Source: an uncultured Bacteroidales bacterium
GTDB lineage: Bacteria; Bacteroidota; Bacteroidia; Bacteroidales; Bacteroidaceae
Assembly: GCA_902802815.1 (NCBI GenBank)
Contig: CADCNQ010000009.1
Coordinates: 1,307-65,306, forward strand
Direction: 5' to 3'
Length of the DNA stretch: 64,000 nt
Shown here in pieces: positions 1,595 through 23,738 of this stretch. Position numbers and translations under genes: made by a program. Numbering within the stretch: position 1 is the stretch's first letter; every line of letters starts with the position of its first letter. The notes beneath the pieces are model-generated. The model worked only from the letters and a program-made list of their open reading frames with translations, did not search any database and had not been told where the DNA came from.

Positions 1595-2041
1595 TTATTG
1601 ATTTACAATTTGTTTATATGCCGCTTTCATTTGGCTTAATAATGTAGAAAACACATCTATAAAATCAGAAGATGACACTAAATACATCTCTGATGAAATT
1701 ACGACTCCGTTTTCTTTAGCACATACCTTTATCCCTAATTTTGCATTATATGAGTTAATGTTTTTAGCTATAGTCCCTTGCTTGATTGTATCCGAGTATT
1801 TGACGTAACGACATAAACGAAGATACATCGGACTCTTCTCATCCTTATCAATTTCAATGTAATAGTTTGAGCCTTCACTTTTAAATTTTAATCCGTCAGA
1901 CTGATTCTCCGGGTTTAGTCCTTGACGCGAGAGATAGGAACTTATATCACTACGCAGTTCTTCCTGAGCTTGAGTGTAGTTCTGTGCATACATAAAAACC
2001 GAGCACCAGAACAATACTAAAAATGCAAATTTCTTTTTCAT
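1595..2041 (-). CDS. Small secreted protein of unknown function, related to the N-terminal module of the adjacent Sel1-repeat protein.
   Basis: 148-aa ORF with a signal-like N-terminus (MKKKFAFLVLFWCSVFMYAQ). Residues ~20-85 align with residues ~21-85 of the 1..1590 product, sharing G[FL]NP, DG.[IL]KF and YY[VI].[VI]D. There is a 4-nt gap to the downstream gene and a 6-nt gap to the upstream gene. Confidence 0.6.
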   Translation of the reverse strand: MKKKFAFLVLFWCSVFMYAQNYTQAQEELRSDISSYLSRQGLNPENQSDGLKFKSEGSNYYIEIDKDEKSPMYLRLCRYVKYSDTIKQGTIAKNINSYNAKLGIKVCAKENGVVISSEMYLVSSSDFIDVFSTLLSQMKAAYKQIVNQ

Positions 2042-5599: not shown

Positions 5600-5600
5600 A

Positions 5601-9013: not shown

Positions 9014-10849
9014 TTAGCTATTAAACCACTCCTTAAGTCTGTCACCCCATGTCTTTTGACGAAGAGACGTGGTGTTTGCCTGAATAACACGGAGGATTTT
9101 CAAAGAATCTGTTTCGTCAAATGTATATACATCTCCCGGCATGAATTTACCAACACAGAACGGGAAGAGTCCCACCTGAAAGCCTGTTGCTTTATTGATG
9201 TCATACGTTTCACATATTCTCTTGATTCGGTTCAAAACAGCTTGATATCCCTGCTGAACAAGGAGTTCCCTAATAACATTTTCATCAGCATAATCACCCA
9301 ACGTATCGCTCTTTGTAAGAATAATGTGGATTGCCGTCACTTTTCTCATAAGTTCTTTATTCTTTTCCAACAAAGAAGCGATACAATTCAGTACATTATC
9401 TTGCTTTACCAATTGTGTGCTGCCGTCATCCATTACTACATCTTTCTCATTGGTCGGATCTATCACAAAGAAAATCACCTTGTTATTATCATTTTGAAGG
9501 AGGCCGGCAGCTCCTGGTCCTAAATCATCAAGACTAGTTGCATTCTCAATAAAGGCAAAATCTCGTGTTTTTTCACCTGCCATTTCAATAATAGATATAT
9601 TGTGGCTGTTTCTCTCTTCATCGTCTATTAGACAATCAATGACTTGAATAAAAAAGTCGTCTGTCTTGGGTGGAAGCATACTTGAACGAGCATAGTTCTG
9701 CAATTCAACCGCATATCGGCCACCGCCACCCTCTCCTCTTGGATCAAAATCAAAGCCAAGTCTGCCACTAAGACTCAACAAACCGGCCAAAACGCACGTT
9801 TTACCAGAACCGGGAATGCCGAAGAAATATATGTCCGTATTACCTTCCGCACTATGTGGATTACTGAGATTGGACATAAGATTCTGAAGGTCGGTTCTTT
9901 GCTCATGCTTTAATGTTGGATATCTTAATATATGGTTATATCCCTTATCGGTAAGAATATAGCTTTTACTTACCAAATCATCGTAAGTAAGCGTTTTTGT
10001 ACTAATGTACTCATACATCGTATCTCTGTGATAATTGAAGGGGAAACGCTTAATATCTGTTAATAAATCACCCTTCAACTCCATTACTCTTGCATCTGCA
10101 TCTTCTCTAAAACGGCAAGATGGATGTTTACTTATAAATTCGACATAAACCTGAATCGTGTCCACTTCCTTTGCCTTAAACCAATCCTCTCTGGCGGCAA
10201 TATTTTCTTGAGTCCACGTCAATAACTCAGAAGCCTTGTTAATATAATCTTTCGCTGTCTCTGTCGTATTTCTTGCATATTTCTGAATAAAAGCATTGAT
10301 TTCCGACACACGCTTGTAATCGTCCTCTATCACCTTCAGACGGTTAAAATCCTCTATGATGGTTCCATTTGCAATTGCTTCTATTTTTTTACGAGCTTCA
10401 TCCAGTTCTGGACTTTCAAATGTACCACCCCTACGGGAAATGAAACTCTCAACTCCAAGCCATTTATCTACAAAATCATTGATAGTATTGACATCCGACG
10501 AAAGCGATATATTGGTCCATTCATTCTTAATTTCGTCCAACGCCAACTTTACAAGATTATCTTTTGCGGATTCAAGATAAGTATCAGGGAATAAACCTTG
10601 TTCTATCTTTTGGATATACTCCATTAAACTGTTTATCGAACCTTTGCTGGCTTCCCAAATTTTTTCTTTTGCCTGATCATTAAACCTCTGTTCCAGTTCA
10701 TTTATTTTTTTATAATTAACATCTCTCAAGCCTTCTATCGTAATTCCTGAATTCGGATTAAGACATAAGTCTAATAGTTGTTGCAAAGGCATTGCATTAC
10801 ACCTTTGATAAACAGCATCTATTTGTTTCTGAGTTAACTCTTCTCCCAT
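9014..10849 (-). CDS. P-loop GTPase: a Ras/TRAFAC-like C-terminal G domain with a ~330-aa helical N-terminal region.
   Basis: 611-aa ORF. G1/Walker A is FFGIPGSGKTCVL. A G3-like element is ISIIEMAGEKT. G4 (N/T)KxD is HIILTKSD. No TM segment is present. Confidence 0.7.
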   Translation of the reverse strand: MGEELTQKQIDAVYQRCNAMPLQQLLDLCLNPNSGITIEGLRDVNYKKINELEQRFNDQAKEKIWEASKGSINSLMEYIQKIEQGLFPDTYLESAKDNLVKLALDEIKNEWTNISLSSDVNTINDFVDKWLGVESFISRRGGTFESPELDEARKKIEAIANGTIIEDFNRLKVIEDDYKRVSEINAFIQKYARNTTETAKDYINKASELLTWTQENIAAREDWFKAKEVDTIQVYVEFISKHPSCRFREDADARVMELKGDLLTDIKRFPFNYHRDTMYEYISTKTLTYDDLVSKSYILTDKGYNHILRYPTLKHEQRTDLQNLMSNLSNPHSAEGNTDIYFFGIPGSGKTCVLAGLLSLSGRLGFDFDPRGEGGGGRYAVELQNYARSSMLPPKTDDFFIQVIDCLIDDEERNSHNISIIEMAGEKTRDFAFIENATSLDDLGPGAAGLLQNDNNKVIFFVIDPTNEKDVVMDDGSTQLVKQDNVLNCIASLLEKNKELMRKVTAIHIILTKSDTLGDYADENVIRELLVQQGYQAVLNRIKRICETYDINKATGFQVGLFPFCVGKFMPGDVYTFDETDSLKILRVIQANTTSLRQKTWGDRLKEWFNS

Positions 10850-10895: not shown

Positions 10896-11849
10896 TTATT
10901 GTATATTCATACCACCCCACATATTAATATCTGAAGCCGCCCCGACACCGATTTCATTTACCGTAGGGCTTGGGGCGGTGAAAAATTTAACAAGACCTAA
11001 AACGCCTAAAAATAGTATTATAAGTATACCACCAAAAGAAAATCCCGGGAAAGATTTGAATATTTCCGCGATATTGTCATCTACTACATATTGAGACGCA
11101 TTGAACGAAGGTATATCCTTCTCTGAAGCAGTCTTGCTTTTCTCGTAAATATCTTGTAACTCCTTGGCAAATCTCTCTTGAACATTTCCCAAATCAGATG
11201 CATATTGGGAGACAGACATAATATTCCAATTATTGAAATTGTTAGCACACCCTTCGACTAAAGCATCTTTTTCTGATTCTAACGACTGGTAGTCTGCACT
11301 TTTTAGTTTAAACAAGAAACTCTCTACAGCCTGATCAACTGCGGTCTCATTCACATCATCAACACTTTTTAATCCGAGCATCCCAACGAGTTTCTGCCTT
11401 CCTTCTTGATGATTAAGAAGCGCTTTCAGTTGGTATCCGTAGGCATTGGCTCGAGCATCACAATTCTTATTATAACTATCAAACATTTTATTAATTGCAG
11501 TAACATTCACACCAACTTTCTTAACAAGATTATCCTGCCCTAACTGTATTTCACAAAATTTTGCAGAATAAATATAACATGGTATTAATGAAACCAAATA
11601 AAATCCGAGCATCGCATACTTAACCTTTGCCCAGTTGCTCTGATTCCGATTCTGTGACTTTGCAAATGCTGCAAAAAACACAAACACTGTCATTAATACC
11701 ACAAGTAACACCGCTACAATTACACTGGGAATCTTGTTTCCCAACGTCATGAAATTCATTCCGAAGAATACAACAATTCCCAAAAACGTAATAGAGATAA
11801 ATGAAATTACATCTCCAATAGGCAATTTGTCTGATTTTGTCTGTGACAT
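10896..11849 (-). CDS. Polytopic membrane protein of unknown function: three N-terminal TM helices, a ~170-aa helical soluble domain and a C-terminal TM helix.
   Basis: 317-aa ORF. Hydrophobic segments are VISFISITFLGIVVFFGMNF, SVIVAVLLVVLMTVFVFFAAF, AMLGFYLVSLIPCYIY and FSFGGILIILFLGVLGLVKFF. Confidence 0.6.
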   Translation of the reverse strand: MSQTKSDKLPIGDVISFISITFLGIVVFFGMNFMTLGNKIPSVIVAVLLVVLMTVFVFFAAFAKSQNRNQSNWAKVKYAMLGFYLVSLIPCYIYSAKFCEIQLGQDNLVKKVGVNVTAINKMFDSYNKNCDARANAYGYQLKALLNHQEGRQKLVGMLGLKSVDDVNETAVDQAVESFLFKLKSADYQSLESEKDALVEGCANNFNNWNIMSVSQYASDLGNVQERFAKELQDIYEKSKTASEKDIPSFNASQYVVDDNIAEIFKSFPGFSFGGILIILFLGVLGLVKFFTAPSPTVNEIGVGAASDINMWGGMNIQ

Positions 11850-11870: not shown

Positions 11871-14621
11871 TTATTTTACTCTTACCAAATTAAATGTTAA
11901 TGAATTTTCAACACTTACAGCCGTACAAACCAAATTCCCTTTTCTATCAGAAGAACATTCGTATTTATACGGAATAAAATCATCTGCTCCGTTGGTTGCC
12001 GGAGATTTCTGAACAATATATATATTTCCACTCTTAATGAAAGCTTCTAACGGGGCCGTATAACGTACATTATTCTTTACTATAATTAGAGTTCCTTTCT
12101 GTTTCTTAAACTGCATATATAATTCAATGGGGAGATTATCATTGGTTGAGACAAGACTTGTAGTTGATTTCCACAGGCCATCCAAACCATGTTTATTTTT
12201 TATTGCCTTACTATATTTCAACGTATCTGAAGGTGTATCAGAATCAGGACAAATTTTTGTCAAACTGTCAATTTTAGCTTTCAATCTTTTTACCTCTTCT
12301 ATAATCTCATCGCATCTATCAGGTGTTTTCTCGCCCATTGCCAATAATACTGCTCTATGAAGATTTACCATTGGTCCGATATTATCACCCACATTACGTC
12401 CCGACTGTTGAAGTATTGAAGTTATCTGACTGACGGTTAAACTTCTGTCAATACTTTTTAAAAGAGCAATAACACCAGAAACCACAGGTGCTGCCATACT
12501 TGTACCGTTCATGCTCATATAACTGTTGTGAGGAGCTGCACTGTAAATATCTACACCTGGGGCAGACACTGTAGAATAAAATCTATTAAGTTGAGGATAA
12601 ACTCCAAAATTACTAAAATGCGCCTTTGATAAATCTGTGTTTAATGCAGAGACACGAATGGTTTCTATACTACGTTTCTTAGGGTCAATTCCAGAAACGA
12701 CATTATCATTTCCTGCAGCGAATACAATGATGCTATTCTTTTGTTTGGCTTTCTCGAAGATTTTTGACCACATCAGTTCTTCCTGTTTCATAGAACTGCT
12801 AATATAATTAAGTTGCTGAGATTCTGACATAGTTTTCACAATGTCTGGAGTGTACATTCCCAACGAAATGTTTATGACATCTGCCCCTTGGGAAATAGCA
12901 TACATTACGCCTTCCATAATAGCCTGATTACTCATTGTTCCATCAGGATTGTCATTTCCCACTTGTACGGGAAGCAACTTACATTTAGGAGCGACACCTA
13001 ATAAGCCCGTGCCATTATTAGCATTTCCGACCGCAGTTGCTGCGACATGTGTTCCATGAGCATTTTCCCCATTTTTGGTTATAATAGGTTTTAATTTCGC
13101 ATTCTGTGTTAGTACATTGTATGGATGAATTACTTTTCCTTTAAATTCCGGATGAGTTAAATCAAATCCATTATCAACAATAGCAACCACAATATCTGAA
13201 TCTCCTTGTAGAATATTCCATGCATCATAAGCACCAATCTCTTTTAAATACCATGCATGAGACGGGGTTTTCAAATCCGGGTCGTCAAATGAAATTTCTT
13301 CCGAGCTGTAAACTGTTTCGTCAAATACGTCAAAAGAAAAATCGCTTAACTTATCCTTTATTTCTTTCTTCACCTGCTCCCGCATGTCTGACGGAACCTT
13401 TATTTGAAGATTACAGAACTCTTCATTATAGTAAAAAATTTGATACTCTTCTTCGGGATATGCCTTCTTGAAAGCTTTTGCCCATTCCAACATTGTGTTG
13501 TCGTCAGTCTTTTCCAAAAGGATATTGAGACGATCTTTTGCTATTTGGGTCATTCCGTCTGCACTCAGACCCACATCACCATCCTCAATTGGAAGTACAA
13601 CAGGTTCATCTGGCAATGGGTTGAAGAATGGGTTTATCAGACTTATCGGTCCCTGACATCCTTTACATAAAAACAAGATTGCAAATATAAGCGAAAGAAT
13701 CAATAGAATACGCCACAATTTACGCAGAATAAATATCAATCCTTTCCATAAACTACAGAAGAATACTTTCCATGTATATTCGTCATCTTTCTTGGGCCGT
13801 TTGTTTTGATTATTTTTACTCTCTGTTTGGGGTTTATCCGTGAGTTCTTTCTTTTCCTCGTTAATTTCCTGTGATACGTCTACGGTTATCTTTTTTGGGG
13901 AACGTACAAGTTCAGGCTTTGGTATATCTTGAATCTGTATCACTTCTTCTTGCTCATTAGGAACCTCTTGGGGAGGATTATCCTGAACTGGCGCTTCAGA
14001 TATATCAGTTTGAGGTTGTTGGGCAACTACGATCTCTGTATCATTTACAGAAACAAGTTCATCAATATCATCATCTGACTGATTTTGCACTTCAGATTTG
14101 ATTTTTGGCTCAACTATAATATCAGGATTCTTTTGTAGTTTATCCCAATTTGCCACAAATTTGCCACTCCTATAAATACTGCCAGAACCAAGGTCTGGTC
14201 TACGCGGGATAAGTCCCCAATTGACTACAACCACATTACCATTACCACAATATACAGAGCGCTCATCAATATATGAGACAGCCTTGGAGAGCAGTTCGCT
14301 TAAAGGTGCCCCACCCTCTTCTTCTTTTAGGATCTGTATTAATGACTCTATCGAATTGATACGCTCTTTCAGGGCATAAGCATACCTCTCCTTTAACACT
14401 CCATCAAGGTCAATTAACAATTTGGGCCTCTCAGTAAAAGAATCCGTTGCCCATGTTATCTCTGTTTGAGTACGTAATCTGGGATTTGCAAGAAAATCAT
14501 TATACGGAAATTCTTCTCTTGATCTCAATAACCCCTGAATACCCTCATAATAGTCTATCACAATGACAGACTTCACTTTGGGCATGATAAAGTCCTTAAT
14601 TGATGACCGATGTATGTCCAT
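11871..14621 (-). CDS. Bitopic membrane protein. It has an N-terminal module shared with the S1 protease gene, an acidic/Pro-rich linker, a TM region, a subtilisin-like (S8) serine peptidase domain and a C-terminal beta-rich domain.
   Basis: 916-aa ORF. S8 catalytic contexts are VAIVDNGFDLTHPEF (Asp), NAHGTHVAATAVGN (His), FAAGNDN (oxyanion Asn) and NGTSMAAPVVSGVIALL (Ser). The TM region LIFILRKLWRILLILSLIFAILFL is preceded by KRPKKDDEY, consistent with N-in topology. Confidence 0.8.
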   Translation of the reverse strand: MDIHRSSIKDFIMPKVKSVIVIDYYEGIQGLLRSREEFPYNDFLANPRLRTQTEITWATDSFTERPKLLIDLDGVLKERYAYALKERINSIESLIQILKEEEGGAPLSELLSKAVSYIDERSVYCGNGNVVVVNWGLIPRRPDLGSGSIYRSGKFVANWDKLQKNPDIIVEPKIKSEVQNQSDDDIDELVSVNDTEIVVAQQPQTDISEAPVQDNPPQEVPNEQEEVIQIQDIPKPELVRSPKKITVDVSQEINEEKKELTDKPQTESKNNQNKRPKKDDEYTWKVFFCSLWKGLIFILRKLWRILLILSLIFAILFLCKGCQGPISLINPFFNPLPDEPVVLPIEDGDVGLSADGMTQIAKDRLNILLEKTDDNTMLEWAKAFKKAYPEEEYQIFYYNEEFCNLQIKVPSDMREQVKKEIKDKLSDFSFDVFDETVYSSEEISFDDPDLKTPSHAWYLKEIGAYDAWNILQGDSDIVVAIVDNGFDLTHPEFKGKVIHPYNVLTQNAKLKPIITKNGENAHGTHVAATAVGNANNGTGLLGVAPKCKLLPVQVGNDNPDGTMSNQAIMEGVMYAISQGADVINISLGMYTPDIVKTMSESQQLNYISSSMKQEELMWSKIFEKAKQKNSIIVFAAGNDNVVSGIDPKKRSIETIRVSALNTDLSKAHFSNFGVYPQLNRFYSTVSAPGVDIYSAAPHNSYMSMNGTSMAAPVVSGVIALLKSIDRSLTVSQITSILQQSGRNVGDNIGPMVNLHRAVLLAMGEKTPDRCDEIIEEVKRLKAKIDSLTKICPDSDTPSDTLKYSKAIKNKHGLDGLWKSTTSLVSTNDNLPIELYMQFKKQKGTLIIVKNNVRYTAPLEAFIKSGNIYIVQKSPATNGADDFIPYKYECSSDRKGNLVCTAVSVENSLTFNLVRVK

Positions 14622-14622
14622 G

Positions 14623-17547
14623 TTACAAGGTAGCTAATTCCTTATATGATTGCAATAAAACACCAAGTTGTTTATTGGCTTCCACATCATAGTTGGGTAC
14701 ATCATAAGATGCGATAAAGGATATCAGAAGCAAATCTATCCACTTGTTGTAGTTAATAAATGATGGCAGAGATGTGAGCATGGCATTCTCTTCCGTTGGA
14801 CGAATATCATCAAACAAATCCGAAAGTTCTTCATTTGACATGGGAACCTTGTCGGTCATTCCATAATCAAAAGACAGATGAAGATTATTCTTTTCATTTA
14901 TCAACTTTAGGTCTGCTATCTTTTCATCTGAATAGTGGTTATATCCAAAAGTAACAACAAATTCATTTATAATCTCTGCTGTTGTATCTGCTATCATATC
15001 CAATATCTGATGAGGAACAGAAATGGCATCAACAAACGGACTAATGGTTTTTGCAATGAATGCGACCAACTTTGTCGTGTCTGCAACAGCTTTGATGTTC
15101 TCTATAAGATCGAGAACAATAAGAGTGTTGCAGCCCTCTGCTTCATAATATTTCAAGTTTTTCTGTGCCTTAATATCCTCAATCCATTTATTGACGATAC
15201 CTTCTGCTAACTGTTCTGAATTGCTCTTCTGCTTGAAGTTACATTCAAATAACTTCTCAAGAGAGATTCCTTTGACCCCCTCAAAGAATTCCTTACAGTC
15301 AAGAACCGTGGGATAATGATACTCCTGACGTAATATCTCCAAATTTTCTTCGAATGTATTAGTTGAAGATATACGACCATGACAACGAGACAGGATTAAG
15401 TCATATTCTTTCATATCTCTGTCAACAATCATCTTTGTGTTGTTCAAAGAATTATAATAGAAATCAAAAACGTAATCCTCACTAACCTGTAAGTTCTGTA
15501 TCATTCGGCCGAAGAAATAATTGTCCTTACCACAGACCACATCAAACTCTGCCACAATACACCCACTCCGCATAATAGCCTTCTGGAGGATGTTCTCGTC
15601 GTTATCATCATGATAATACTCTTGCATTAACTGATATGTCTGGGCATGAAGTCCTTTAACCTCTGACTGATACTTGTACAAACGACTTTCTTTTGCATTA
15701 GTCGCGACAATCCCAAGATTCTCAATTATGCGCGTGGCACCGTCGTTGTTCATCGTTGCTGCAGCATCCCATGCCAATTCGGGGTCTTCAAAGAATGTAG
15801 TAACATAAGGGCTTGTTATGAAACTTTTTCGTAATTCTTGATGGAACTGTATATCTATTTCCGATGTCTCCACACCTTGAGTGTCAAATCCCTCAAACAG
15901 ACGATTGCCATTGACACCAGACCACTTATAATCTCTCAACAAATAAGTATTGCGGAATCCACCTCTTTCTGTCCAATTACTAAACCAGCTCAAACTATCT
16001 GCTTGCAACACCTGATCATATAAAACTTTTTTATAACGGTCTTCCCACCTCTTTTCTATCTGATCATCGCCTCCGCTTTGTACAGAATGACTCATATCTA
16101 TGTTAAACTTGGTCGCAACCATAAATAATGGAGATACTATACTTTTATCTAAGTAAGTTGTACGTTCCTTAACTGTTGAGCCCATGTTTTGTTTCACCCA
16201 TTGTTCAACCAGCCCAGGCATAACAGTTGGACCATTCTGCATATGGTCGTGGCAAAGCATTAGAACATTTATCAATCGTTCATCACTATATTTATTAAAT
16301 AGGTAACGAACCTTACCACGGAGCATCATTTTATTGTTAAGTTCTATCTTTATTTGTTCTTCCTGCAATTCAAGTGCTGCACGCGCTCCGGGAAAGTCAA
16401 AAATATCAACCGTATTCAAGAACTGTTTGCTTACTTTCTTATTCCAACCTTTGGAGAGAAGACGCTGACGATTACCATCTTCTGTGATACCATCAAGATT
16501 ATATGTCAGTTCTTCATTTATCGTTTCTTCTGGAATCTGGAACACGACTTCAGCAGAAATAGCAGAAAGGACACTCTTGGAGAAACCCTCTACAATCTTC
16601 TTTTCTTCTGTAAGGAGGTCTGTCCCCATATCAGGATCTGTGTTTCCTGTCGTTGGAGAAGCAACATCTAGTTTTTGTAAGCAAAGAGAACTCATTAGTG
16701 TAGTTGTCGTATTCAATAACGCAGAAATGGGAACATATACTCGCTTCGAGAAAGCAAGTGTCTCATATCCTTGAAGCATTCTTACAAAAAGACTTGTTAT
16801 GTCAGAATTATCATACCATAATTTAGACATCAATTGAGGCCATTCGCGTGGTTGAACATAAGGAATAATGCGTGCCAGGACATCAAAGAAACGAGAATCA
16901 AGCAACTCCTTTGCTTTTGTTATACCAACATGACCTTCAACATATTCACGTACGTTCATTATGTCATCTTCGTCAAGAACATTTTGAACTTTTGGAACAC
17001 CTTTATAACGCCTTTCCTGAGCCAACATGAACTCATCAATATCTTCCCTGTCTATAACAGAATGTGACTTGACATCATTGTATGCAGTATCACATAATAT
17101 CTGAAGCATATCAGCTATGGACAAGACCTTAACCATGATTGGATAGTTCTCGTCAGGCACTTCATAACTACAAGTAAATCGCGTTGCCACACCTGTAGCC
17201 TCAGTATCACGGGTAATGGGGTTAAACTGCTCAACAAAATTATAAGACTCGCCGGTCTTAGGATCCTGTACCATAAATTGCTGGCCCTTTCGCGCAAGCA
17301 GAGAACTAATAACATAGCTCTTACCCTTCTGACTCTCCCCGAATGCTGCAATAGCAGGATTACTCTCCAACGAGAAGCGAAATCTTTTTAACTGTCTTCT
17401 TATATTCACCAATTTCTTGAAAGTCTCTTCACGGCGGCTCTCCTGTAAATGGTTGTCACCCCATTTGATGAAATTATTGATAGAATTGATTTGATCTGTT
17501 ACGTTTTTTATCAATTCACCATTTTGGGTCTCTATTATATCGTTCAT
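14623..17547 (-). CDS. Large P-loop NTPase (GTPase-like), SrfC-like.
   Basis: 974-aa ORF. Walker A is AAFGESQKGKSYVISSLL. A switch-I-like Thr sits in ITRDTEATGVATRF. A Walker B/DxxG-like element is VDIFDFPGARA. Its size and its position immediately downstream of an SrfB-like gene mirror the srfB-srfC pairing. The family assignment is from memory and has not been searched. Confidence 0.6.
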   Translation of the reverse strand: MNDIIETQNGELIKNVTDQINSINNFIKWGDNHLQESRREETFKKLVNIRRQLKRFRFSLESNPAIAAFGESQKGKSYVISSLLARKGQQFMVQDPKTGESYNFVEQFNPITRDTEATGVATRFTCSYEVPDENYPIMVKVLSIADMLQILCDTAYNDVKSHSVIDREDIDEFMLAQERRYKGVPKVQNVLDEDDIMNVREYVEGHVGITKAKELLDSRFFDVLARIIPYVQPREWPQLMSKLWYDNSDITSLFVRMLQGYETLAFSKRVYVPISALLNTTTTLMSSLCLQKLDVASPTTGNTDPDMGTDLLTEEKKIVEGFSKSVLSAISAEVVFQIPEETINEELTYNLDGITEDGNRQRLLSKGWNKKVSKQFLNTVDIFDFPGARAALELQEEQIKIELNNKMMLRGKVRYLFNKYSDERLINVLMLCHDHMQNGPTVMPGLVEQWVKQNMGSTVKERTTYLDKSIVSPLFMVATKFNIDMSHSVQSGGDDQIEKRWEDRYKKVLYDQVLQADSLSWFSNWTERGGFRNTYLLRDYKWSGVNGNRLFEGFDTQGVETSEIDIQFHQELRKSFITSPYVTTFFEDPELAWDAAATMNNDGATRIIENLGIVATNAKESRLYKYQSEVKGLHAQTYQLMQEYYHDDNDENILQKAIMRSGCIVAEFDVVCGKDNYFFGRMIQNLQVSEDYVFDFYYNSLNNTKMIVDRDMKEYDLILSRCHGRISSTNTFEENLEILRQEYHYPTVLDCKEFFEGVKGISLEKLFECNFKQKSNSEQLAEGIVNKWIEDIKAQKNLKYYEAEGCNTLIVLDLIENIKAVADTTKLVAFIAKTISPFVDAISVPHQILDMIADTTAEIINEFVVTFGYNHYSDEKIADLKLINEKNNLHLSFDYGMTDKVPMSNEELSDLFDDIRPTEENAMLTSLPSFINYNKWIDLLLISFIASYDVPNYDVEANKQLGVLLQSYKELATL

Positions 17548-17561
17548 AATCCTACTTGTTT

Positions 17562-20500
17562 TTAACCATTAATACTTAAAACGAACTCACCCTTATCAAG
17601 CCAGTAGGCACCGTCACTGGCAAGACTTTGAACCCCAAAACTCAGTTTCTGTTGAGAGAACGGCTTACCCATAGCATCAATTGCAGAAACTATTTTCAAC
17701 TCTTCCTTGTCCTGGGAATAATTTCTCACTACGGAAACCTTTAAAGGTAATGATACAGTATGCAAATCTACGCCTTCCGCTAAATTGAGCGCGAATATGG
17801 GACGCGCTTGATAAAACTGCGAGACCAGTTGCTTACAACCAATAAATAGAGGGAATCCATGAACTTCAAAAGTTGCTGTATTTTGATCTGGTGTAAGTAT
17901 GGCCTCGGATACTTTTTGATTGACCACATTATACAGTCCCATATAATTAGCCGTAGATACCATATCTTTCTTTAAATGGGTCATGTCCATGTGAAATCCG
18001 TTGATGCCGCCATTTGACGACATGTAACCTATCATGGCACCAATGGCAACCAAGGACTTCTGATCCTTGAAATATCCAAGTCCATCAGCGAAGGGGTACC
18101 ATTCACCAACACGGTAGTCGTTAAGACGGATAAGACGATTAGGAGAAGTTGGATAATACTTCAGGAACAAATCCGTAATTGCAGTTAACGATGTTGGTTT
18201 ACCGGCAAGTAAAACAATATCACAATTATATGTATTGAGCACTATGGCGAGCTGCTTCATCAAAGGCTCTATCTTGGTAATGATTATGTTTGAAAGGATA
18301 CTCTCATCAAAATTCCAAACAATCTTCTTGAAATCGAAATTGACATAAGACTTCCCGTTGGCTTCAATACTAAAATGCTTGTTAAAATGCTCTAAGATAA
18401 AACTTGCAGGCTGAAGTTCTCCAAAGAAATCCTCATATTTAAGCCTCATCGATTTACGTCCAAGACGCAACATGTCAAGCATCTTAAGCCCCATCGGAAC
18501 TGAGACCTGAACATTGAAATCCTGACGCATGATTCTGTCTTTATAGTCCATCAAAGCTTTGTCCTTTCCAAAGAAATTGTGAATACGCTCTGATGTCTCA
18601 CGTGATGCGTATGTGTATTTTATCTCTTGCTTCTCTGCATCTGATAAATTACTTAAATTTATCTTTCCTTTCAGATTTAGAGCTTCTACAAAATCATCAT
18701 CAGACAAAGCCATATAATTAGAACAAATCGCATTGAAGATAGGACCTTCATAAAGTTGACCAAGTCCTTTATTCTTACCTTCAATAATAACTGCTCTGAC
18801 AATTTCCTCAAGGATGTCGTCTCCAGCATAGTAGAAACTGTCCCAGAACAAAGGTTTGGGTGTAAGCTTACATACACCTTTCTCATCATATTTGTAGGCG
18901 CATATCATCAAGTCTGTTGTTCCTGCGCCAATGTCAACCGAACCAATTGTCAAAGAGTTCTTCTTATAATCATCTTCCAAGAACTCCTTACGCACATGAC
19001 CATATAGGTTAAAAAAGTCCTCACAATGATTGAGATAACGTTGTGCCACCTCCGCATACAGGTAAACCAATTGGCAACATGTGGCTTCATCATATCCCCA
19101 TTCTGTCTTGATGCGCTGTGTTGCGGGATTGTTCGGGTTTGTTGTCAGGTCTTTGACAGAAGGAATAATCTGAATCTTTCCTTGCCATTCCGCCGGGTCG
19201 TAAGGTTGATAATATAAATCCGGATCCTTACAACGAAGAAGGGATATATAAGCGTCCTCCGCACATTGACGAAGTATTACCTGTTCTTCCTTCGGCATTG
19301 CGGTGGGACAGGTAATAATGATGCTTCTCAATTTCCTCGGGATATTAATATCTCCATGTTTTTCCCGGAATCCCGGACTATTTATCTGACAATTGGCTTG
19401 CTGGAAAATCTCAATCATCACAAATGTCATTAACGACCTGCGAGAGAATGAGCTAAAGATTCCACCATTCTTGCTTCTACGCAATGTTCCGTCGCTATCG
19501 AATTGTTCTGATAGACCCTTAATGTTAATGTAATGATTCAGCGAAGAATTCTCATCTTCTTCCGTCGTAAGGAAGTCCCATTGCCCTTCAAATTGTTTAT
19601 TATCCCACAAATATCTCTTAGGGCTGGAATAGTTCGTCGTTTTTTGCGCTACTCCATTGGCTGGACGAGACTTATAAATCAATTTTATAGCTTCATCACC
19701 GATGCGTAAAAAGCTCTGCCAAGAAAACTGGTCGGGAACATCCATTTCACCAAATTTACAATGATGAAATGCTAAGCGCATATCAAAAGGCTTTTTGTAT
19801 ACTCTCCAAGGTTCTGACAAATCTTGAAGTTGAAGCATATCTACCTTTGTAAAATTTGCATCTTCAAACAATACCCCACACGTGCGAGAGTTGCCAATAT
19901 CAAGCACCAAGTCCACAGGTTTTGTCTCTTGATCATCCGTATAAAGTATAATTTCAGGAGTTAGCCCTATCTTTTGTATGTAAGACACAATTGTTATATA
20001 ATAAGCAATATAATGGAAATGCGAGATGTCACCCTCTGCAGACGTAAGTTCTGTATTCTCTTTGTTGCCATGTATAAGTGTTGCTATATATTCATCTACC
20101 CATTCACAGTCATAAGGTTTGGGAGAAAAGAAGTTAAACAACAATGAGATGTCTTTGCTGATTGAATAGTGTTTTTCTTCCTCACCATCATAGAAGAAAG
20201 GCTTATTCCCAGATATATCATTCTTAACTGATGTAGTGTCAAATGCCCAAACGACATGATAACGCCTTATGTTTTTTATTTTTGACGATGGAACAAGCTT
20301 CATGCGACACCATCCAGTCGGTCCAAACACGCTATTCCCCTGACTATCCTTTTCAAACATCGGCATTGGTAACCATTGGTTTTCTATCGCATCAAGAGGA
20401 CAGGTCCCCTTAGCTAAACGCTCTGTTATTGAGCCAGCAAAACAATAATCACTATAGCAATCTTTTTCATCTAGCACATCAAGCGTGGTAAAATCTATCT

Positions 20501-20813
20501 TACTTTCATCCACTATACGTTCATTACCATCAGAATCAAGGTATAGGTATGGAATCGGTTTATGATTCCTTAACTCATCAAGTCTAACTATCTGACCACC
20601 CGTAAAATTGACTGCCATCTCCAATGTCCACACGTCATCCATGATGTTGTAACTTTCATGGAACACCATAGGAACATCAAAGTCATTTTCGTCTTTGATG
20701 GTTAACGGACTCAAGAAGTTACCTTCTTTGTCAACAAAACTTTCTTCTGGTTTAATTTCAAAATCAGATGAAAAAAACTGAATGCCTGTGTTGGCAATTA
20801 GTGAAATGTTCAT
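17562..20813 (-). CDS. Very large Hsp70/actin-fold (ASKHA) ATPase, SrfB-like.
   Basis: The ORF track gives 17562..20873. The likelier start is ATG at 20811-20813 (MNISLIANTG...), 5 nt after the upstream stop. ASKHA motifs are phosphate-1 VDLVLDIGNSRTCGVLF, phosphate-2 GSVDIGAGTTDLMICAY and an adenosine-like CDIVLLAGKPTSL. Confidence 0.65.
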   Translation of the reverse strand: MNISLIANTGIQFFSSDFEIKPEESFVDKEGNFLSPLTIKDENDFDVPMVFHESYNIMDDVWTLEMAVNFTGGQIVRLDELRNHKPIPYLYLDSDGNERIVDESKIDFTTLDVLDEKDCYSDYCFAGSITERLAKGTCPLDAIENQWLPMPMFEKDSQGNSVFGPTGWCRMKLVPSSKIKNIRRYHVVWAFDTTSVKNDISGNKPFFYDGEEEKHYSISKDISLLFNFFSPKPYDCEWVDEYIATLIHGNKENTELTSAEGDISHFHYIAYYITIVSYIQKIGLTPEIILYTDDQETKPVDLVLDIGNSRTCGVLFEDANFTKVDMLQLQDLSEPWRVYKKPFDMRLAFHHCKFGEMDVPDQFSWQSFLRIGDEAIKLIYKSRPANGVAQKTTNYSSPKRYLWDNKQFEGQWDFLTTEEDENSSLNHYINIKGLSEQFDSDGTLRRSKNGGIFSSFSRRSLMTFVMIEIFQQANCQINSPGFREKHGDINIPRKLRSIIITCPTAMPKEEQVILRQCAEDAYISLLRCKDPDLYYQPYDPAEWQGKIQIIPSVKDLTTNPNNPATQRIKTEWGYDEATCCQLVYLYAEVAQRYLNHCEDFFNLYGHVRKEFLEDDYKKNSLTIGSVDIGAGTTDLMICAYKYDEKGVCKLTPKPLFWDSFYYAGDDILEEIVRAVIIEGKNKGLGQLYEGPIFNAICSNYMALSDDDFVEALNLKGKINLSNLSDAEKQEIKYTYASRETSERIHNFFGKDKALMDYKDRIMRQDFNVQVSVPMGLKMLDMLRLGRKSMRLKYEDFFGELQPASFILEHFNKHFSIEANGKSYVNFDFKKIVWNFDESILSNIIITKIEPLMKQLAIVLNTYNCDIVLLAGKPTSLTAITDLFLKYYPTSPNRLIRLNDYRVGEWYPFADGLGYFKDQKSLVAIGAMIGYMSSNGGINGFHMDMTHLKKDMVSTANYMGLYNVVNQKVSEAILTPDQNTATFEVHGFPLFIGCKQLVSQFYQARPIFALNLAEGVDLHTVSLPLKVSVVRNYSQDKEELKIVSAIDAMGKPFSQQKLSFGVQSLASDGAYWLDKGEFVLSING

Positions 20814-20818
20814 ATCTT

Positions 20819-21079
20819 TTATAATGTTATTATCAATAATAAAATATGTAATGTTAAAAACAACGGTATGCAAACCTGAAACATTTTATGATTAGTCTTA
20901 TGATGGAAACCATACATAGCCAACATCGCTCCCAATGAGCCTCCTCCTGCAGCGATTGCAAGAAGAACAGATTCTGATACGCGCCACTTATTTATGACTG
21001 CACAGTGCTTATCGTAACCATAAATTCCAAAAGAAATAATATTTAGTAGAAACACATAAACAATAATAATATACATCAT
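20819..21079 (-). CDS. DUF1294-family small membrane protein.
   Basis: 86-aa ORF with the motif pattern YDKHCAVINKWRVSESVLLAIAAGGGSLGAMLAMYGFHHKTNHKMF. This is characteristic of DUF1294 (YDK..A....WR[IV].E..L......GG..GA......F.HKT.K..F). Confidence 0.7.
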   Translation of the reverse strand: MMYIIIVYVFLLNIISFGIYGYDKHCAVINKWRVSESVLLAIAAGGGSLGAMLAMYGFHHKTNHKMFQVCIPLFLTLHILLLIITL

Positions 21080-21100
21080 GCCCTCTAACTTACTTTATCT

Positions 21101-21772
21101 TTACTTTATCACTTGTATAAAAGCTGTAGGTATATAAGCTGTTGAAATTAGCCCAACCTCGGTTATATTTACTATAACCCTCTGCTGACCTGACACTCTA
21201 GCAACCCTTCCTTCTACACCTTTAAATGCCCCGTCTGTTATCCTGACAATATCTCCGCTCTTGAAGTGGCACTGTGACTCGTCCACAAACTTTAAATGCT
21301 CACTGTTATTACAAGTGGCCATAATGAAGTTTTCCATTTCCTTGCGTGAAATTACCAAGGGTGGATTCTTTAGATTCTCATTATGTTGAAAATGATTATA
21401 ATAGTATGTAAGATAAGATATTGAGGGCGTATTTCTAACATACTCTTCTGCCTTCTCGCTAGTGGTATAAACAAAAAGAAGGTTCGGTATTAAGGACTCC
21501 AGAACCTTCTTTTGTTTACCATTTATCATCTTACGGGCATAACGCTTAGCAACATAAACAAATGTTCCGTCTGATATGATGTAATCCGATGCCTTATCTT
21601 CTCTTCCATATGAAGCACGAAACACATACCATTTCTTTGATGAGGTCGGCACATATCTTACCGACACCCCAGTCGCTGAACTTTTTGCTTCGGGGATGGT
21701 ATCAGAGATAAGTCTAACACAGGGAGGATTTGTCTCGCCTCCACAAGTAGCAACATTAGACAATGTGCTCAT
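21101..21772 (-). CDS. UpxY-family (NusG-like specialised paralog) transcription antiterminator.
   Basis: The ORF track gives 21101..21829. The likelier start is the internal Met at 21772 (MSTLSNV...). The NGN-like start is KKWYVFRASYGREDKASDYI. The C-terminal KOW motif is GDIVRITDGAFKGVEGRVARVSGQQRVIV. It is the first gene of the minus-strand block. Confidence 0.8.
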   Translation of the reverse strand: MSTLSNVATCGGETNPPCVRLISDTIPEAKSSATGVSVRYVPTSSKKWYVFRASYGREDKASDYIISDGTFVYVAKRYARKMINGKQKKVLESLIPNLLFVYTTSEKAEEYVRNTPSISYLTYYYNHFQHNENLKNPPLVISRKEMENFIMATCNNSEHLKFVDESQCHFKSGDIVRITDGAFKGVEGRVARVSGQQRVIVNITEVGLISTAYIPTAFIQVIK

Positions 21773-21831
21773 AATAGACCTTTTGTATCGGTCATAAATC
21801 GTATAAATGAAAAAGCGTGGAGACCACATCT

Positions 21832-22056: not shown

Positions 22057-22166
22057 AGCGCATGATATACGCCTTTTCCATATATGGTATCCCACAAACA
22101 CCTCAAAGACACTTCCTTTCGGCTTTTCCCAGCGGTTTTTACACCACTTTCGGCGTGGAGATGTCA

Positions 22167-22174
22167 CAAAAGTA
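22167..22174 (-). promoter_or_regulatory. Candidate Bacteroidetes -7 promoter box (TAnnTTTG) for the UpxY-led operon.
   Basis: The minus-strand sequence TACTTTTG matches the Bacteroides sigma-A -7 consensus TAnnTTTG. It lies in a very AT-rich stretch about 390 nt upstream of the UpxY start. I found no clean -33 TTTG. Confidence 0.3.
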
Positions 22175-23727: not shown

Positions 23728-23738
23728 CAACTTTAACC

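Follow-up and report, generated by a model that had tools for sequence, protein, structure and literature searches.

A complete, re-ordered Srf system joined to predicted exported proteases in a Bacteroidales operon

The srfABC loci of Salmonella, Xenorhabdus, Klebsiella and other Proteobacteria, whose products are known as SsrB-regulated factors and as the 'SrfABC toxin', consist of adjacent, co-oriented genes in the order A-B-C, are accompanied by accessory genes for vWA, ABC transporter and SUMF1 proteins, and are horizontally mobile, being found on plasmids in Klebsiella. SrfA, SrfB and SrfC co-purify (PMC6950479), SrfA is a bitopic protein whose C-domain lies in the periplasm, and in an AF3 model from another species (ipTM 0.66) the SrfA-N domain is the platform for SrfB and then SrfC (bioRxiv 10.64898/2026.09.18.752743). 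Salmonella srf mutants have a cell-surface phenotype, affecting swarming and surfactant (PMC4219756; PMC11370582). The pair SrfB/SrfC is already known in Bacteroidales from NCBI annotation, where the homologs are named 'virulence factor SrfB' and 'SrfC family protein'. A second point of reference is provided by the predicted GTPase-centric systems, which are built on DO-GTPase/GAP1 and may also include Hsp70 or tubulin (Kaur, Burroughs, Iyer & Aravind, eLife 2020; PMC7159879); SrfB and SrfC lie outside the systems described there, and the name SrfB has zero occurrences in that paper.

The window analysed here is a stretch of 64,000 nucleotides from an uncultured Bacteroidales bacterium, an origin that fits both the relatives of the locus (Xylanibacter, Paraprevotella, Prevotella) and the polysaccharide-utilisation genes flanking it. 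Two neighbouring minus-strand open reading frames, 17562-20873 and 14623-17547, had been described in an earlier note as a distant SrfB/SrfC-like pair, with no obvious SrfA, joined to proteases and a third GTPase. The family assignment stands and the distance does not, as both products are clear members far above the Pfam gathering scores:

17562..20813, minus strand: SrfB, 1083 aa; Pfam SrfB PF07520, 619.6 bits, E=1.5e-185
14623..17547, minus strand: SrfC, 974 aa; Pfam Virul_Fac PF10139, 344.5 bits, E=1.9e-102

These matches exclude chance. That the two are merely unrelated ASKHA and P-loop neighbours has a negligible probability: the Pfam scores are more than ten times the gathering cut-offs, the alignments to the Klebsiella proteins are full-length, the pairing is kept in 83 fetched loci (median gap 18 nt), and nothing was found in favour of this null. 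Judged by sequence, SrfB and SrfC are the core of a complete, re-ordered Srf system, and the best explanation of the operon, which we advance tentatively at a little under an even chance, is that its cytoplasmic NTPases control exported proteases across the membrane.

SrfB is by sequence and fold prediction a genuine SrfB-family Hsp70-like ATPase, with ATPase activity predicted. Its true start is almost certainly the ATG at 20813, because the resulting 1083 aa is the length of nearly all close homologs; a start at TTG 20873 was rejected on account of overlap with the upstream DUF1294 gene. The N-terminal extension, put earlier at some 320 aa, comes to about 300 aa before the first ASKHA motif. 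This beta-rich region, which includes about 140 more N-terminal residues than are matched in Klebsiella SrfB, is followed by a nucleotide-binding domain with large insertions and a C-terminal beta domain. The three ASKHA motifs that had been pointed out are all present, LDIGNSRTCG at aa 304, VDIGAGTTDL at aa 626 and VLLAGKPTSL at aa 867, with D305, G307-G313, D627, G629-D634, G871 and P873 invariant in 14 homologs of 42-72% identity, and they are also found in Runella SrfB and, identically, in SrfB of Klebsiella and the proteobacterial loci. When its AF2 model (pLDDT 72.9) was searched with Foldseek, the top 50 matches all belonged to the Hsp70 family (E~1e-11, probability 1.0). SrfB and the Hsp70 chaperones (DnaK, BiP, Ssb, Hsp110) are thus alike in the nucleotide-binding fold and in all three phosphate and adenosine motifs, whereas sequence identity is just 10-12%, the N-terminal extension and the insertions are peculiar to SrfB, any counterpart of the substrate-binding domain is at best putative, and the operon, unlike Hsp70 chaperone systems, has no J-protein or GrpE gene.

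SrfC is, on the same kind of evidence, a genuine SrfC-family large GTPase whose activity is predicted from its P-loop motifs: G1 at aa 70-77, T118, G3 DFPG at 384-387 and TKFN at 479-482. The Walker A sequence GESQKGKSY, switch-I-like Thr and DFPG that had been noticed earlier are all confirmed, GESQKGKS (aa 70), EATG (aa 116, containing T118) and DFPG (aa 384) being invariant in 22 sequences with identities down to 21% and the same in proteobacterial SrfC; the Klebsiella protein aligns over its full length at 21% identity (E=7e-45). The C-terminal half is all-helical, and the structural neighbours that Foldseek places nearest to the AF2 model (pLDDT 72.6), though the similarity is weak, are BDLP, DLP and mitofusins (E>=0.015, TM<=0.25), so that SrfC is probably dynamin-like. 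With the bacterial dynamin-like proteins (Nostoc BDLP, Campylobacter DLP1/2, B. subtilis DynA, E. coli LeoABC) and mitofusins it shares the large size and the combination of a helical element at the N-terminus, a GTPase domain and long helical bundles, and, as a further likeness, it would act with membrane partners. Unlike them, it carries an insertion of about 260 aa between G2 and G3, lacks a paddle or TM region, and has no sequence match to Pfam Dynamin_N, PADLOC LeoA or PDB profiles.

The view that SrfA is missing has to be given up. The gene directly 3' of srfC encodes, by sequence comparison, an SrfA with an S8 protease inserted, a single-pass membrane protein by hydropathy, and another SrfA-N domain stands at the N-terminus of the trypsin-like protein further downstream:

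11871..14621, minus strand: SrfA homolog with inserted subtilase, 916 aa; SrfA-N, low-complexity linker, TM helix, S8 peptidase, SrfA-C
14178..14621, minus strand: SrfA-N domain, aa 1-148, predicted cytoplasmic; BLASTP to Klebsiella SrfA 64-152, E=2e-4
13653..13709, minus strand: single TM helix of SrfA, aa 305-323; hydropathy peak 2.35
12390..13199, minus strand: Peptidase_S8 domain, aa 475-744; Pfam E=1.2e-48
11907..12185, minus strand: SrfA-C beta-barrel domain, aa 813-905; LDGLW version of the FLNGxW motif
2048..4576, minus strand: second SrfA-N protein, 842 aa; Pfam Trypsin_2 E=7e-12, Big_1, MG4, CarboxypepD_reg

The SrfA-N profile of Bacteroidota sequences alone recovered Klebsiella SrfA (E=9.7e-21 after iteration), and the Bacteroidota SrfA-C profile matched Klebsiella SrfA 373-477 at E=5.9e-20. 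SrfA-C also covers positions 332-427 of 438 of the NCBIfam SrfA_fam model (E=1.4e-10) and matches Klebsiella SrfA 375-463 by BLASTP (E=9e-5), collinear with the SrfA-N match, and the TM helix sits at the position of the canonical one (bioRxiv 10.64898/2026.09.18.752743). The order SrfA-N, linker, TM and SrfA-C is thus that of proteobacterial SrfA, from which the window protein differs in the subtilase of about 270 aa between TM helix and SrfA-C, where the proteobacterial protein has no protease, and in two retained SrfA-C cysteines instead of four. The subtilase lies in what is predicted to be the extracytoplasmic part, followed by SrfA-C, and the enzyme looks active, its catalytic motifs being complete: Asp (VDNGFD), His (HGTHVA), Asn (GNDN) and Ser (GTSMAAP). 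Topology throughout the operon was assigned from hydropathy and the absence of signal peptides alone.

The 842-aa protein, a further difference from proteobacterial srfABC, comprises SrfA-N (aa ~20-131), Ig-like repeats, a TM helix (~aa 462-482) and a trypsin-like serine protease with intact catalytic residues (His in TNRH, Asp in NDVA, Ser in GSSGSP). Its SrfA-N was found at E=3.2e-5 by a profile that never included the protein itself and by hhalign at 96% (E=4.2e-9). The Ig-like repeats are unusual on the predicted cytoplasmic side, and the topology could be misjudged. In other clades a tail-anchored SrfA-N/Ig protein and a trypsin-like lipoprotein are encoded apart, and in the clade whose S8 protein has no SrfA-N both occur as separate proteins in 33 of 36 full-flank metagenome loci, SrfA-N not being found in the other three; from these sequences, the window protein is a fusion of the two. 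SrfA-N, always N-terminal, is fused to S8 in 35 of 53 cases, to InlB-type repeats in 9 of 53, and also to papain-like, vWA and other domains, from which we infer that it is an adaptor domain.

The two proteins with SrfA-N belong to one operon of at least 13 genes, with a NusG-like antiterminator first, on a low-GC island; operon and island extend past the left window edge. Its remaining members and candidate promoter are:

22167..22174, minus strand: candidate Bacteroidetes-type -7 promoter element, TACTTTTG, fitting the consensus TAnnTTTG, ~340 nt upstream of the first gene
21101..21829, minus strand: NusG-like (UpxY-type) specialised antiterminator, first gene; Pfam NusG E=8e-9, KOW E=1.5e-5
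20819..21079, minus strand: DUF1294 small membrane protein; Pfam PF06961 E=1.4e-21, 3 hydrophobic segments
10896..11849, minus strand: polytopic membrane protein, a conserved operon member, 317 aa; 3-4 hydrophobic segments
9014..10849, minus strand: third NTPase, 611 aa; helical N-terminal half and TRAFAC-type GTPase, distantly like DO-GTPases
6452..9001, minus strand: bitopic partner of the third GTPase, 849 aa; TM helix 502-520
4583..6434, minus strand: two small variable genes, 277 aa with N-terminal anchor and 343 aa with signal-like N-terminus
1595..2041, minus strand: exported or lipoprotein-like protein, 148 aa, conserved, after the trypsin-like gene
1..1590, minus strand: Sel1-repeat protein gene, cut by the left window edge; Pfam Sel1 E=3.7e-30

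The order of the core genes is B-C-A, in contrast to the proteobacterial A-B-C, and the polytopic membrane protein, third GTPase, bitopic partner, Sel1 protein and antiterminator take the place of the accessory genes found there. Like the UpxY (NusG-SP) operons of Bacteroides, the operon begins with a NusG/KOW paralog behind a long leader and is long and tightly packed; known UpxY loci are capsular polysaccharide operons, whereas this one encodes a protein machine. Antiterminator homologs precede srfB in L003, L004, L006, L007 and other loci, and the DUF1294 gene does so in L087 as well. In locus L085, whose proteins are identical to those of the window, a 541-aa Sel1 gene directly follows the 148-aa gene; the latter has an ortholog 55% identical in L086 and keeps its position in L085-L087, L086 and L087 retaining the whole operon, while other small genes stand in relatives in place of the 277-aa and 343-aa genes.

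About 70 Bacteroidota genomes share SrfB, SrfC, a membrane S8 protease, the polytopic membrane protein (a family of 72 loci after iteration), the third GTPase and the bitopic partner, the block SrfB-SrfC-S8-(membrane protein)-GTPase recurring in about 70 of 82 genome loci and the third GTPase in 70 of the 82. A second membrane-anchored SrfA-N protein and small exported proteins are inherited along with this set. The proteases and third GTPase of the earlier note are real, as the Pfam matches above and the P-loop motifs GIPGSGKT (344), EMAGE (422) and TKSD (512) attest, and, because they are conserved partners, the suggestion that they give the pair a functional context is supported. The N-terminal family of the 849-aa protein, which has neither a Pfam nor a GAP1 match, is encoded directly 3' of the third GTPase in at least 48 loci; its predicted cytoplasmic N-terminal ~500 aa are conserved, and its predicted extracytoplasmic C-terminal part is hypervariable and unique to the window.

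The proteins diverge at very different rates. Relative to the close relative L086, identity is 94% for SrfB, 93% for SrfC and 84-96% for SrfA-N, as against 22-48% for the SrfA linker, 54% for the third GTPase and 14-28% for the outer part of the 849-aa partner, along which it drops from 58% to 14%; extracytoplasmic parts fall to about 20%, and the block of DNA similarity stops exactly where SrfA-N ends. Purifying selection on SrfB and SrfC, which have neither signal peptides nor TM segments, is very strong (94% protein versus 80% DNA identity), whereas the outer domains show extreme divergence and domain swapping. A constant cytoplasmic engine with fast-evolving outer domains suggests, from sequence, targets or signals that are outside the cell and variable, such as competitors, host factors or phage.

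A constant core with diversifying partners would also suit an anti-phage or other intracellular conflict system, in which SrfB, SrfC and the third GTPase form an NTP-dependent threshold switch, the variable proteins recognise an invader, and the proteases bring about the death or shutdown of the infected cell; we regard this as unlikely. The operon does share with the GTPase-centric systems a TRAFAC GTPase with the characteristic Walker B Glu (PMC7159879) next to an Hsp70-family ATPase, a GTPase gene followed by a large, GAP1-like partner with constant and variable parts, and many membrane-associated components with variable effectors including peptidases. It lies on a horizontally acquired low-GC island, directly adjoins BREX in a Runella plasmid, and the vWA and SUMF1/FGE-type genes of the proteobacterial loci are common in such predicted systems. 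Many homologs of the third GTPase have a precomputed PF19993 match, but its own match to Pfam DO-GTPase2 (E=2.3e-3) is below the cut-off (18 vs 27 bits), the operon has no GAP1-N, -M or -C domain and none of the published kinds of effector-associated domains, and GAP1 domains were absent from 10 diverse GTPase partners. PADLOC models did not match SrfB, SrfC, the third GTPase or its partner, and matched 7 of 123 upstream neighbours (18 loci), most of them generic, while Pfam found mainly housekeeping genes, so that there is no general defence-island context. Predicted extracytoplasmic effectors would be oddly placed against intracellular phage, and a single SrfB relative in 2.9 million viral contigs lends no support.

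Fast evolution of the outer domains, like the proteases, Sel1-repeat proteins and small exported proteins, would also fit an exported tripartite toxin or virulence factor, whose Srf proteins or carried proteases leave the cell and damage host or competitors, for example in outer-membrane vesicles formed by a dynamin-like SrfC, as claimed for Xenorhabdus SrfABC. Lysates containing Xenorhabdus SrfABC have cytotoxic and insecticidal effects (PMC6950479), a 2026 preprint argues for vesicle export (bioRxiv 10.64898/2026.09.18.752743), and the fold of SrfC is weakly dynamin-like. We nevertheless think this improbable: cytotoxicity was recorded with lysates in which the proteins were over-expressed, the operon has no vesicle or secretion gene, the Salmonella operon is FlhDC-controlled with a cell-intrinsic swarming defect in its mutants (PMC4219756), and the soluble, strongly constrained SrfB and SrfC are typical of an intracellular engine. 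The window system does not look like a soluble secreted 'toxin'.

The system might instead serve envelope maintenance, a mobile but housekeeping-type function in which an Hsp70 chaperone-like and dynamin-like membrane-remodelling module uses membrane-anchored proteases for quality control or for processing surface proteins or wetting agents. The Hsp70 fold of SrfB, the surfactant and swarming phenotypes of Salmonella srfB and srfC mutants (PMC4219756; PMC11370582), the housekeeping neighbours, and the resemblance of the proteases to membrane-anchored processing subtilases such as mycosins (a sub-threshold NCBIfam match, E=3e-35) speak for it, and yet we hold it to be comparably improbable: distribution is patchy, the operon lies on an island with differing insertion sites in close relatives, divergence and domain swapping of the outer domains are unexpected for quality-control machinery, and the dedicated antiterminator suggests conditional expression.

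Under the explanation that we prefer, in which cytoplasmic NTPases control proteases across the membrane, SrfA-N domains on the inner side of the cytoplasmic membrane would be the assembly site for SrfB and SrfC, a docking inferred here from the other species' AF3 model and from co-conservation in relatives of the window. The ATP and GTP cycles of SrfB/SrfC would make the single-pass SrfA-type proteins change their conformation or oligomeric state and, through them, control whether the serine proteases beyond the membrane become active, cluster or are released, with the third GTPase and its variable bitopic partner supplying a specificity or sensing input; in this system NTPases would gate, through the membrane, proteases that act on the envelope or outside the cell. 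Signalling could run inside-out or outside-in. Because some S8 proteins have neither SrfA-N nor SrfA-C, the coupling may instead pass through the TM segment or through the 317-aa membrane protein, and, proteobacterial SrfA having no protease, protease control cannot be what every Srf system does. The protease-bearing SrfA and the architecture of the operon appear to be undescribed so far; with a whole Srf system joined to predicted exported proteases, an orphan "virulence factor" family gains a testable mechanism.

The two large adjacent genes at the heart of the locus encode clear members of the SrfB and SrfC families, rather than distant look-alikes of them, and they are accompanied by the genes and signals listed here.

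Main features of the srf operon (window positions)
22174-22167, minus strand: TAnnTTTG-type element TACTTTTG, ~340 nt upstream of the NusG-like gene
head of the operon, minus strand: NusG/KOW (UpxY-type) gene, then DUF1294 gene (Pfam)
17562-20873, minus strand: SrfB ORF, best start ATG 20813, giving 1083 aa (ORF call and homolog lengths)
14623-17547, minus strand: SrfC, 974 aa
11871-14621, minus strand: SrfA with a subtilase (Peptidase_S8, here S8) domain, 916 aa
2048-4576, minus strand: trypsin-like protein, 842 aa

For SrfB, the start at ATG 20813 is preferred because the resulting 1083 aa match nearly all close homologs and because TTG 20873 would overlap the upstream DUF1294 gene. Both proteins match their Pfam families over the full length and match no other Pfam family, SrfB with 619.6 bits against PF07520 (cut-off 27.1; E=1.5e-185) and SrfC with 344.5 bits against PF10139, Virul_Fac (cut-off 28.1; E=1.9e-102). 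On annotated plasmids, tblastn with SrfB recovers genes named 'virulence factor SrfB' in Klebsiella, Rahnella, Leclercia, and one Runella plasmid (E=7e-80 to 0 for the annotated Klebsiella and Runella SrfB), and in BLASTP the SrfC of the window aligns end to end with that of Klebsiella (960 columns, E=7e-45). The two genes are adjacent in every non-truncated locus (83 loci, others than Bacteroidota included), with a median gap of 18 nt, and in Bacteroidales the pair is already recognised by NCBI automatic annotation under the SrfB/SrfC names. An earlier note on this DNA had proposed a "distant SrfB/SrfC-like pair"; the family identity of each protein and the pairing are borne out, but the word "distant" is not, since the Pfam scores lie far above the gathering cut-offs.

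The nucleotide-binding motifs that the note had quoted are all present. SrfB carries the ASKHA motifs LDIGNSRTCG (phosphate-1, aa 304), VDIGAGTTDL (phosphate-2, aa 626), and VLLAGKPTSL (adenosine, aa 867), which recur in Klebsiella SrfB and whose key residues are invariant across diverse homologs, and SrfC carries the Walker A motif GESQKGKS (aa 70), the switch-I Thr (T118), and DFPG (aa 384), invariant in 22 sequences and found in Klebsiella SrfC as well. Compared by sequence with PDB chains, neither protein gave a real match, and a diverse 22-sequence SrfC profile retrieved designed repeats and nanobodies only. The structural comparison suggested in the note gave a clear outcome for SrfB: all of the top 50 PDB neighbours found by Foldseek with an AlphaFold2 model of moderate confidence (pLDDT 72.9, pTM 0.61) belong to the Hsp70 family (Ssb, BiP, DnaK, Hsp110, and mortalin; E~1e-11, probability 1.0), which, at the level of a predicted model, confirms a fold of the Hsp70 type and not of the actin or ParM type. 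The alignment behind the AlphaFold model of SrfC (pLDDT 72.6) was shallow, with close homologs and three sequences of ~35% identity. In this model, a helical hairpin at the N-terminus precedes a GTPase domain into which ~260 aa are inserted, and the C-terminal half is all-helical. The nearest Foldseek neighbours, BDLP, DLP, and mitofusin, are weak (E=0.015-1, probability <=0.8, TM <=0.25), and no recognisable dynamin-type GTPase domain was found in SrfC by sequence (Pfam, PDB profile search). We therefore treat "dynamin-like" as a lead only for the modelled protein.

Taken as a whole, the observations of the earlier note stand, as does the core of its interpretation (an SrfB/SrfC pair in a Bacteroidales protease operon), but it was wrong in seeing "no obvious SrfA" here: the gene directly 3' of srfC (11871-14621) encodes N- and C-terminal domains, SrfA-N and SrfA-C, homologous to those of Klebsiella SrfA, together with an S8 domain at aa 475-744 (Pfam). 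Against the NCBIfam SrfA model NF040486 the 916-aa protein scores 41.2 bits, below the curated cut-off of 150 bits, and the match is confined to the C-terminal ~95 residues of the model (aa 813-905 of the protein, E=1.4e-10), because the S8 insertion and divergence break a full-length match. When a reference srfA-srfB-srfC locus was taken from a Klebsiella plasmid for comparison, BLASTP gave two collinear matches, of Klebsiella SrfA 64-152 with aa 59-138 (E=2e-4) and of 375-463 with aa 813-899 (E=9e-5). Local profile searches, whose E-values relate to small sets (a few thousand ORFs), recover the Klebsiella SrfA N-domain with a profile from 34 Bacteroidota N-domains only (E=9.7e-21 after iteration) and match the Bacteroidota SrfA-C profile to Klebsiella SrfA 373-477 (E=5.9e-20). 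The end domains are separated in both proteins by a low-complexity linker and a single TM helix, which in the window protein lie at aa ~170-290 and aa 305-323 (hydropathy), respectively. A preprint describes SrfA as consisting of SrfA-N, a disordered region, a TM helix, a 'novel domain', and a lipocalin-like SrfA-C with an FLNGxW motif (bioRxiv 10.64898/2026.09.18.752743). The window protein, which reads LDGLW at the position of that motif, shares the canonical order of SrfA-N, disordered linker, single TM helix, and SrfA-C, with the S8 domain as an extra, and by homology it is an SrfA into whose predicted extracytoplasmic part a subtilase has been inserted.

With SrfA present after srfC, the locus is a complete srf system; like canonical srfABC, it has three adjacent and co-oriented genes, whereas their order is B-C-A in the window and A-B-C in Klebsiella. 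Protease-bearing or Bacteroidota forms of SrfA are not mentioned in the preprint, and we found no other paper on them. In Xylanibacter muris, the closest cultured relative, the SrfA/S8 gene is apparently split (16180-18507 and 18574-18966 of the fetched locus) into a 775-aa N-S8 ORF and a separate 130-aa ORF matching SrfA-C, which may be genuine or the result of a frameshift or sequencing error. On the Klebsiella plasmid pPM48_140 (4785-7245 and 14537-20814 of the fetched locus), the canonical srfABC forms part of a larger conserved set: a gene for a glycine-zipper protein and two for hypothetical proteins precede it, and genes for a hypothetical protein, vWA, ABC ATPase, permease, and SUMF1 follow it; this type of set occurs on 114 Klebsiella plasmids, mostly non-mobilisable and of IncFIB type.

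A second protein of the operon bears the same N-terminal domain. The N-terminus of the 842-aa trypsin-like protein matches an SrfA-N profile that never contained it (E=3.2e-5), and in a profile-profile comparison the two agree over 107 columns with 96% probability (E=4.2e-9); the N-termini of the SrfA/S8 and trypsin-like proteins do not match in BLASTP, so the kinship is visible by profiles only. In the alignment of the two SrfA-N paralogs, W57, P66, Y80, C125, and W135-G136 are conserved. SrfA-N is followed by Ig-like repeats (Big_1, MG4, CarboxypepD_reg), a hydrophobic helix at ~aa 462-482, and the trypsin-like domain, and the catalytic residues are intact in both the S8 and the trypsin-like protease. 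Across the genome loci, SrfA-related genes occur as N-S8 (29), S8-C (24), the N-S8-C type of the window (11), N with other domains (10), and S8 only (6). An exhaustive search of 1.84 billion representatives returned 72 proteins with SrfA-N, N-terminal in all; among the 53 long ones, 35 have S8, 9 have InlB-type repeats, and one each has a papain-like protease, a vWA domain, or an IgGFc-binding domain. The idea that SrfA-N is missing in 30/73 loci was rejected as an artefact of 10-kb flanks, as metagenome loci re-centred on the GTPase have it further downstream. One GTPase sequence used alone as query retrieved no metagenome loci; an alignment-based scan yielded 80 loci centred on the GTPase of the clade seemingly without SrfA-N, and in 33 of the 36 with full flanks the domain is carried by a 490-621-aa protein in which SrfA-N and Ig-like repeats are followed by a TM anchor at the C-terminus. 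A separate gene for a 372-aa trypsin-like lipoprotein lies just upstream of srfB in the same clade, and the 842-aa protein of the window is a fusion of these two products, one that ties the cytoplasmic adaptor to the exported protease. In two loci (L042 and L053), SrfA-N paralogs occur as a tandem pair, and there are additional trypsin-like genes.

An alignment-based scan of reference genomes, with simple ORF calls in the fetched loci, recovered 80 Bacteroidota loci that span Bacteroidales, Chitinophagales, Saprospiraceae, Flavobacteriales, and Cytophagales, X. muris being the nearest, with an SrfB 89% identical in X. muris PMUR. The block of SrfB, SrfC, S8 protein, (317-aa membrane protein), and 611-aa GTPase is found in about 70 loci, and the proteases and third GTPase that the note had offered as the context of the pair have thus turned out to be conserved partners. 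The family of the 317-aa membrane protein is present in 72 loci (after iteration). For the 849-aa protein, the first 500 aa, which are cytoplasmic, have homologs encoded immediately 3' of the GTPase gene in at least 48 loci, and its C-terminal part matches only itself in the local search. The GTPase-centred loci L086/L087, from a close relative, keep the whole operon, in the order DUF1294, SrfB, SrfC, S8, ~315 aa, GTPase, ~850 aa, variable small genes, trypsin-like ~840 aa, ~147 aa, and Sel1. In an Alistipes MAG (L022:20629-22827), the 849-aa-family protein after the GTPase has several eukaryote-type C2H2 zinc fingers at its C-terminus (Pfam zf-C2H2, E=3.5e-10), which is unusual in a membrane-associated protein of a bacterium. 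In the distant loci L042, L046, L052, L054, L071, and L072, 8-10 tightly packed same-strand genes occupy the 10 kb upstream of srfB, and there the operon probably extends in that direction.

Comparison with L086 separates a constant core from a variable periphery.

Identity of the window proteins to their counterparts in L086
SrfB: 94%
SrfC: 93%
SrfA/S8 (overall): 66%
317-aa membrane protein: 44%
611-aa GTPase: 54%
849-aa protein: 39%
Trypsin-like protein: 53%

Within SrfA/S8, identity is 84-96% in SrfA-N, 22-48% in the linker, and 44-88% in the rest, and along the 849-aa protein it drops from 58% to 14%. The conserved DNA block (80% identity to L086, 76% to the X. muris locus) stops at window position ~14,115-14,144, which is the end of SrfA-N. 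Because the proteins are 94% identical where the DNA is only 80% identical, these comparisons indicate that strong purifying selection acts on SrfB, SrfC, and SrfA-N together, and recent recombination seems a less likely cause of the block. Such co-conservation fits both the AF3 model of the Haemophilus proteins in the preprint, where SrfA-N serves as platform first for SrfB and next for SrfC (bioRxiv 10.64898/2026.09.18.752743), and the co-immunoprecipitation of SrfA, SrfB, and SrfC in Xenorhabdus (PMC6950479), and we infer from it that a physical SrfA-SrfB-SrfC complex would also form in the window system. The Xenorhabdus work and the vesicle hypothesis of the preprint speak for a different role, that of an exported toxin, but SrfB and SrfC lack export signals and are extremely conserved, and Salmonella mutants have swarming and surfactant phenotypes that are cell-intrinsic (PMC4219756, PMC11370582).

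Instead, we favour control of proteases across the membrane. The operon encodes, as predicted from its sequence, a cytoplasmic Hsp70-like ATPase and two GTPases, along with three single-pass proteins whose large N-terminal parts lack signal peptides and whose C-terminal parts follow the TM helix, their topology being taken from hydropathy only. In two of the three, the C-terminal part is a serine protease of a kind normally acting outside the cytoplasm, and the trypsin-like protease is a lipoprotein where it is separately encoded. SrfB and SrfC would dock on SrfA-N, their nucleotide cycles would control the proteases across the membrane, and the second GTPase with its hypervariable partner would supply specificity. 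As a whole, this reading of identities and trans-membrane protease control falls, in our judgement, a little short of an even chance; the protein identities within it are a near certainty, and the mechanism is a tentative proposal, distinctly more apt to fail than to hold.

The 611-aa GTPase raises the prospect of an anti-phage or conflict system instead. It scores 18.1 bits against DO-GTPase2 (Pfam), below the cut-off of 27, about a fifth of its listed homologs have a precomputed PF19993 match, its Walker B motif EMAGE contains the Glu, and it has no real match among PDB chains by sequence; its kinship with SrfC as a distant paralog (a 'double GTPase') was considered and rejected, the hhalign alignment covering the P-loop only (E=0.04). 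To this weak DO-GTPase link can be added the analogy with the systems of Kaur et al. 2020 (PMC7159879) and a neighbour in Runella sp. SP2, whose 93-kb plasmid pSP2_1 has a complete BREX type 1 system (brxC, methylase, pglZ, brxL) directly upstream of the SrfB-SrfC-S8 operon (1-12730 and 14001-31165 of the fetched locus), the sole defence-system neighbour seen and an anecdotal one. However, the DO-GTPase/GAP1 systems have a GAP1 protein beside the GTPase, and for the window-type loci this identity was rejected, as 10 diverse proteins directly after the GTPase gave no GAP1 Pfam match at E<=1. PADLOC 2.0 left SrfB, SrfC, the GTPase, and its partner unmatched and returned generic protease-domain matches only for the operon, while among 123 upstream neighbours in 18 loci, mainly housekeeping genes, it gave 7 matches, most of them generic. 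The lack of a defence-island context and the placement of the effectors outside the cytoplasm likewise argue against this role. A scan of viral contigs found a single SrfB relative, which implies that the system is not phage-borne; this gene (IMG/VR UViG_3300045988_173203, 56.5 kb; 444-3494, 33% identity) lies near one contig end and may be host DNA flanking a prophage.

The whole srf operon sits on a low-GC island, with a sharp shift from ~37% GC in positions 1 to ~22,000 to ~54% in the remainder of the window (22000-64000). The low-GC part is a single minus-strand gene array with intergenic gaps of -14 to +46 nt; the left end of the island is beyond the window, whose left edge truncates the Sel1 gene of the operon. 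We take TACTTTTG at 22174-22167, on the TAnnTTTG consensus, to be a candidate promoter element, and the leader of ~340 nt between it and the NusG-like gene (21830-22174, minus strand) may carry a recognition element for a specialised antiterminator.

Features to the right of the operon
22336-22710, minus strand: ORF, 124 aa, no Pfam match; transition zone, GC ~47%
22742-23461, minus strand: ORF, 239 aa, no Pfam match; transition zone, GC ~47%
23739-31889: polysaccharide-utilisation-type neighbourhood, right flank of the island (Pfam)
56089-56161: tRNA-Arg(CCT), far from the island
60538-60609: tRNA-Gln(TTG), far from the island

The two ORFs lie between the island and the GH43 xylosidase/arabinanase-like gene of the flanking neighbourhood, where a lyase-like/LamG protein of 1402 aa and a hybrid two-component-like regulator with AraC output are also encoded. 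The visible right boundary of the island shows no tRNA, integrase, or repeat, and the insertion sites of the operon are not the same among relatives. Envelope maintenance is a possible role of the system, but it fits poorly with the island location and with the hypervariable outer domains.

In a wider scheme, which we consider unlikely on present evidence, Srf systems would be widespread, unrecognised trans-envelope machines and not toxins. An Hsp70-like ATPase and a putative dynamin-like GTPase would dock on SrfA-N, the dedicated adaptor domain of single-pass membrane proteins, and through nucleotide-driven remodelling would bring into action exchangeable effectors on the extracytoplasmic side (S8, trypsin-like, and papain-like proteases, binding repeats, and lipocalin-like barrels), to which the second GTPase and hypervariable sensor partner of Bacteroidota would add specificity. 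The whole would be a conflict or immunity system of the envelope, its engine constant and its outputs exchangeable. The literature, as far as we found, describes neither an SrfA that carries a protease nor the second SrfA-N protein, and it has no account of the six-gene core or of a constant engine surrounded by a variable periphery.

SrfA, SrfB, and SrfC have been labelled 'virulence factors' for 25 years without an accepted mechanism, although they are encoded in hundreds of genomes, those of pathogens and Klebsiella plasmids included, and SrfB in more than 590 reference genomes. The Bacteroidota version reveals a conserved six-gene core and places two serine proteases, with their catalytic residues intact, on the extracytoplasmic side of proteins bearing the SrfB/SrfC-associated adaptor domain, and it puts in question the 'secreted toxin' label propagated by database annotation. 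It turns a vague label into testable hypotheses, namely that SrfA-N is a docking module, that the output lies outside the membrane, and that the engine is constant while the outputs vary, and these findings give a first concrete mechanistic handle on the orphan Srf system.
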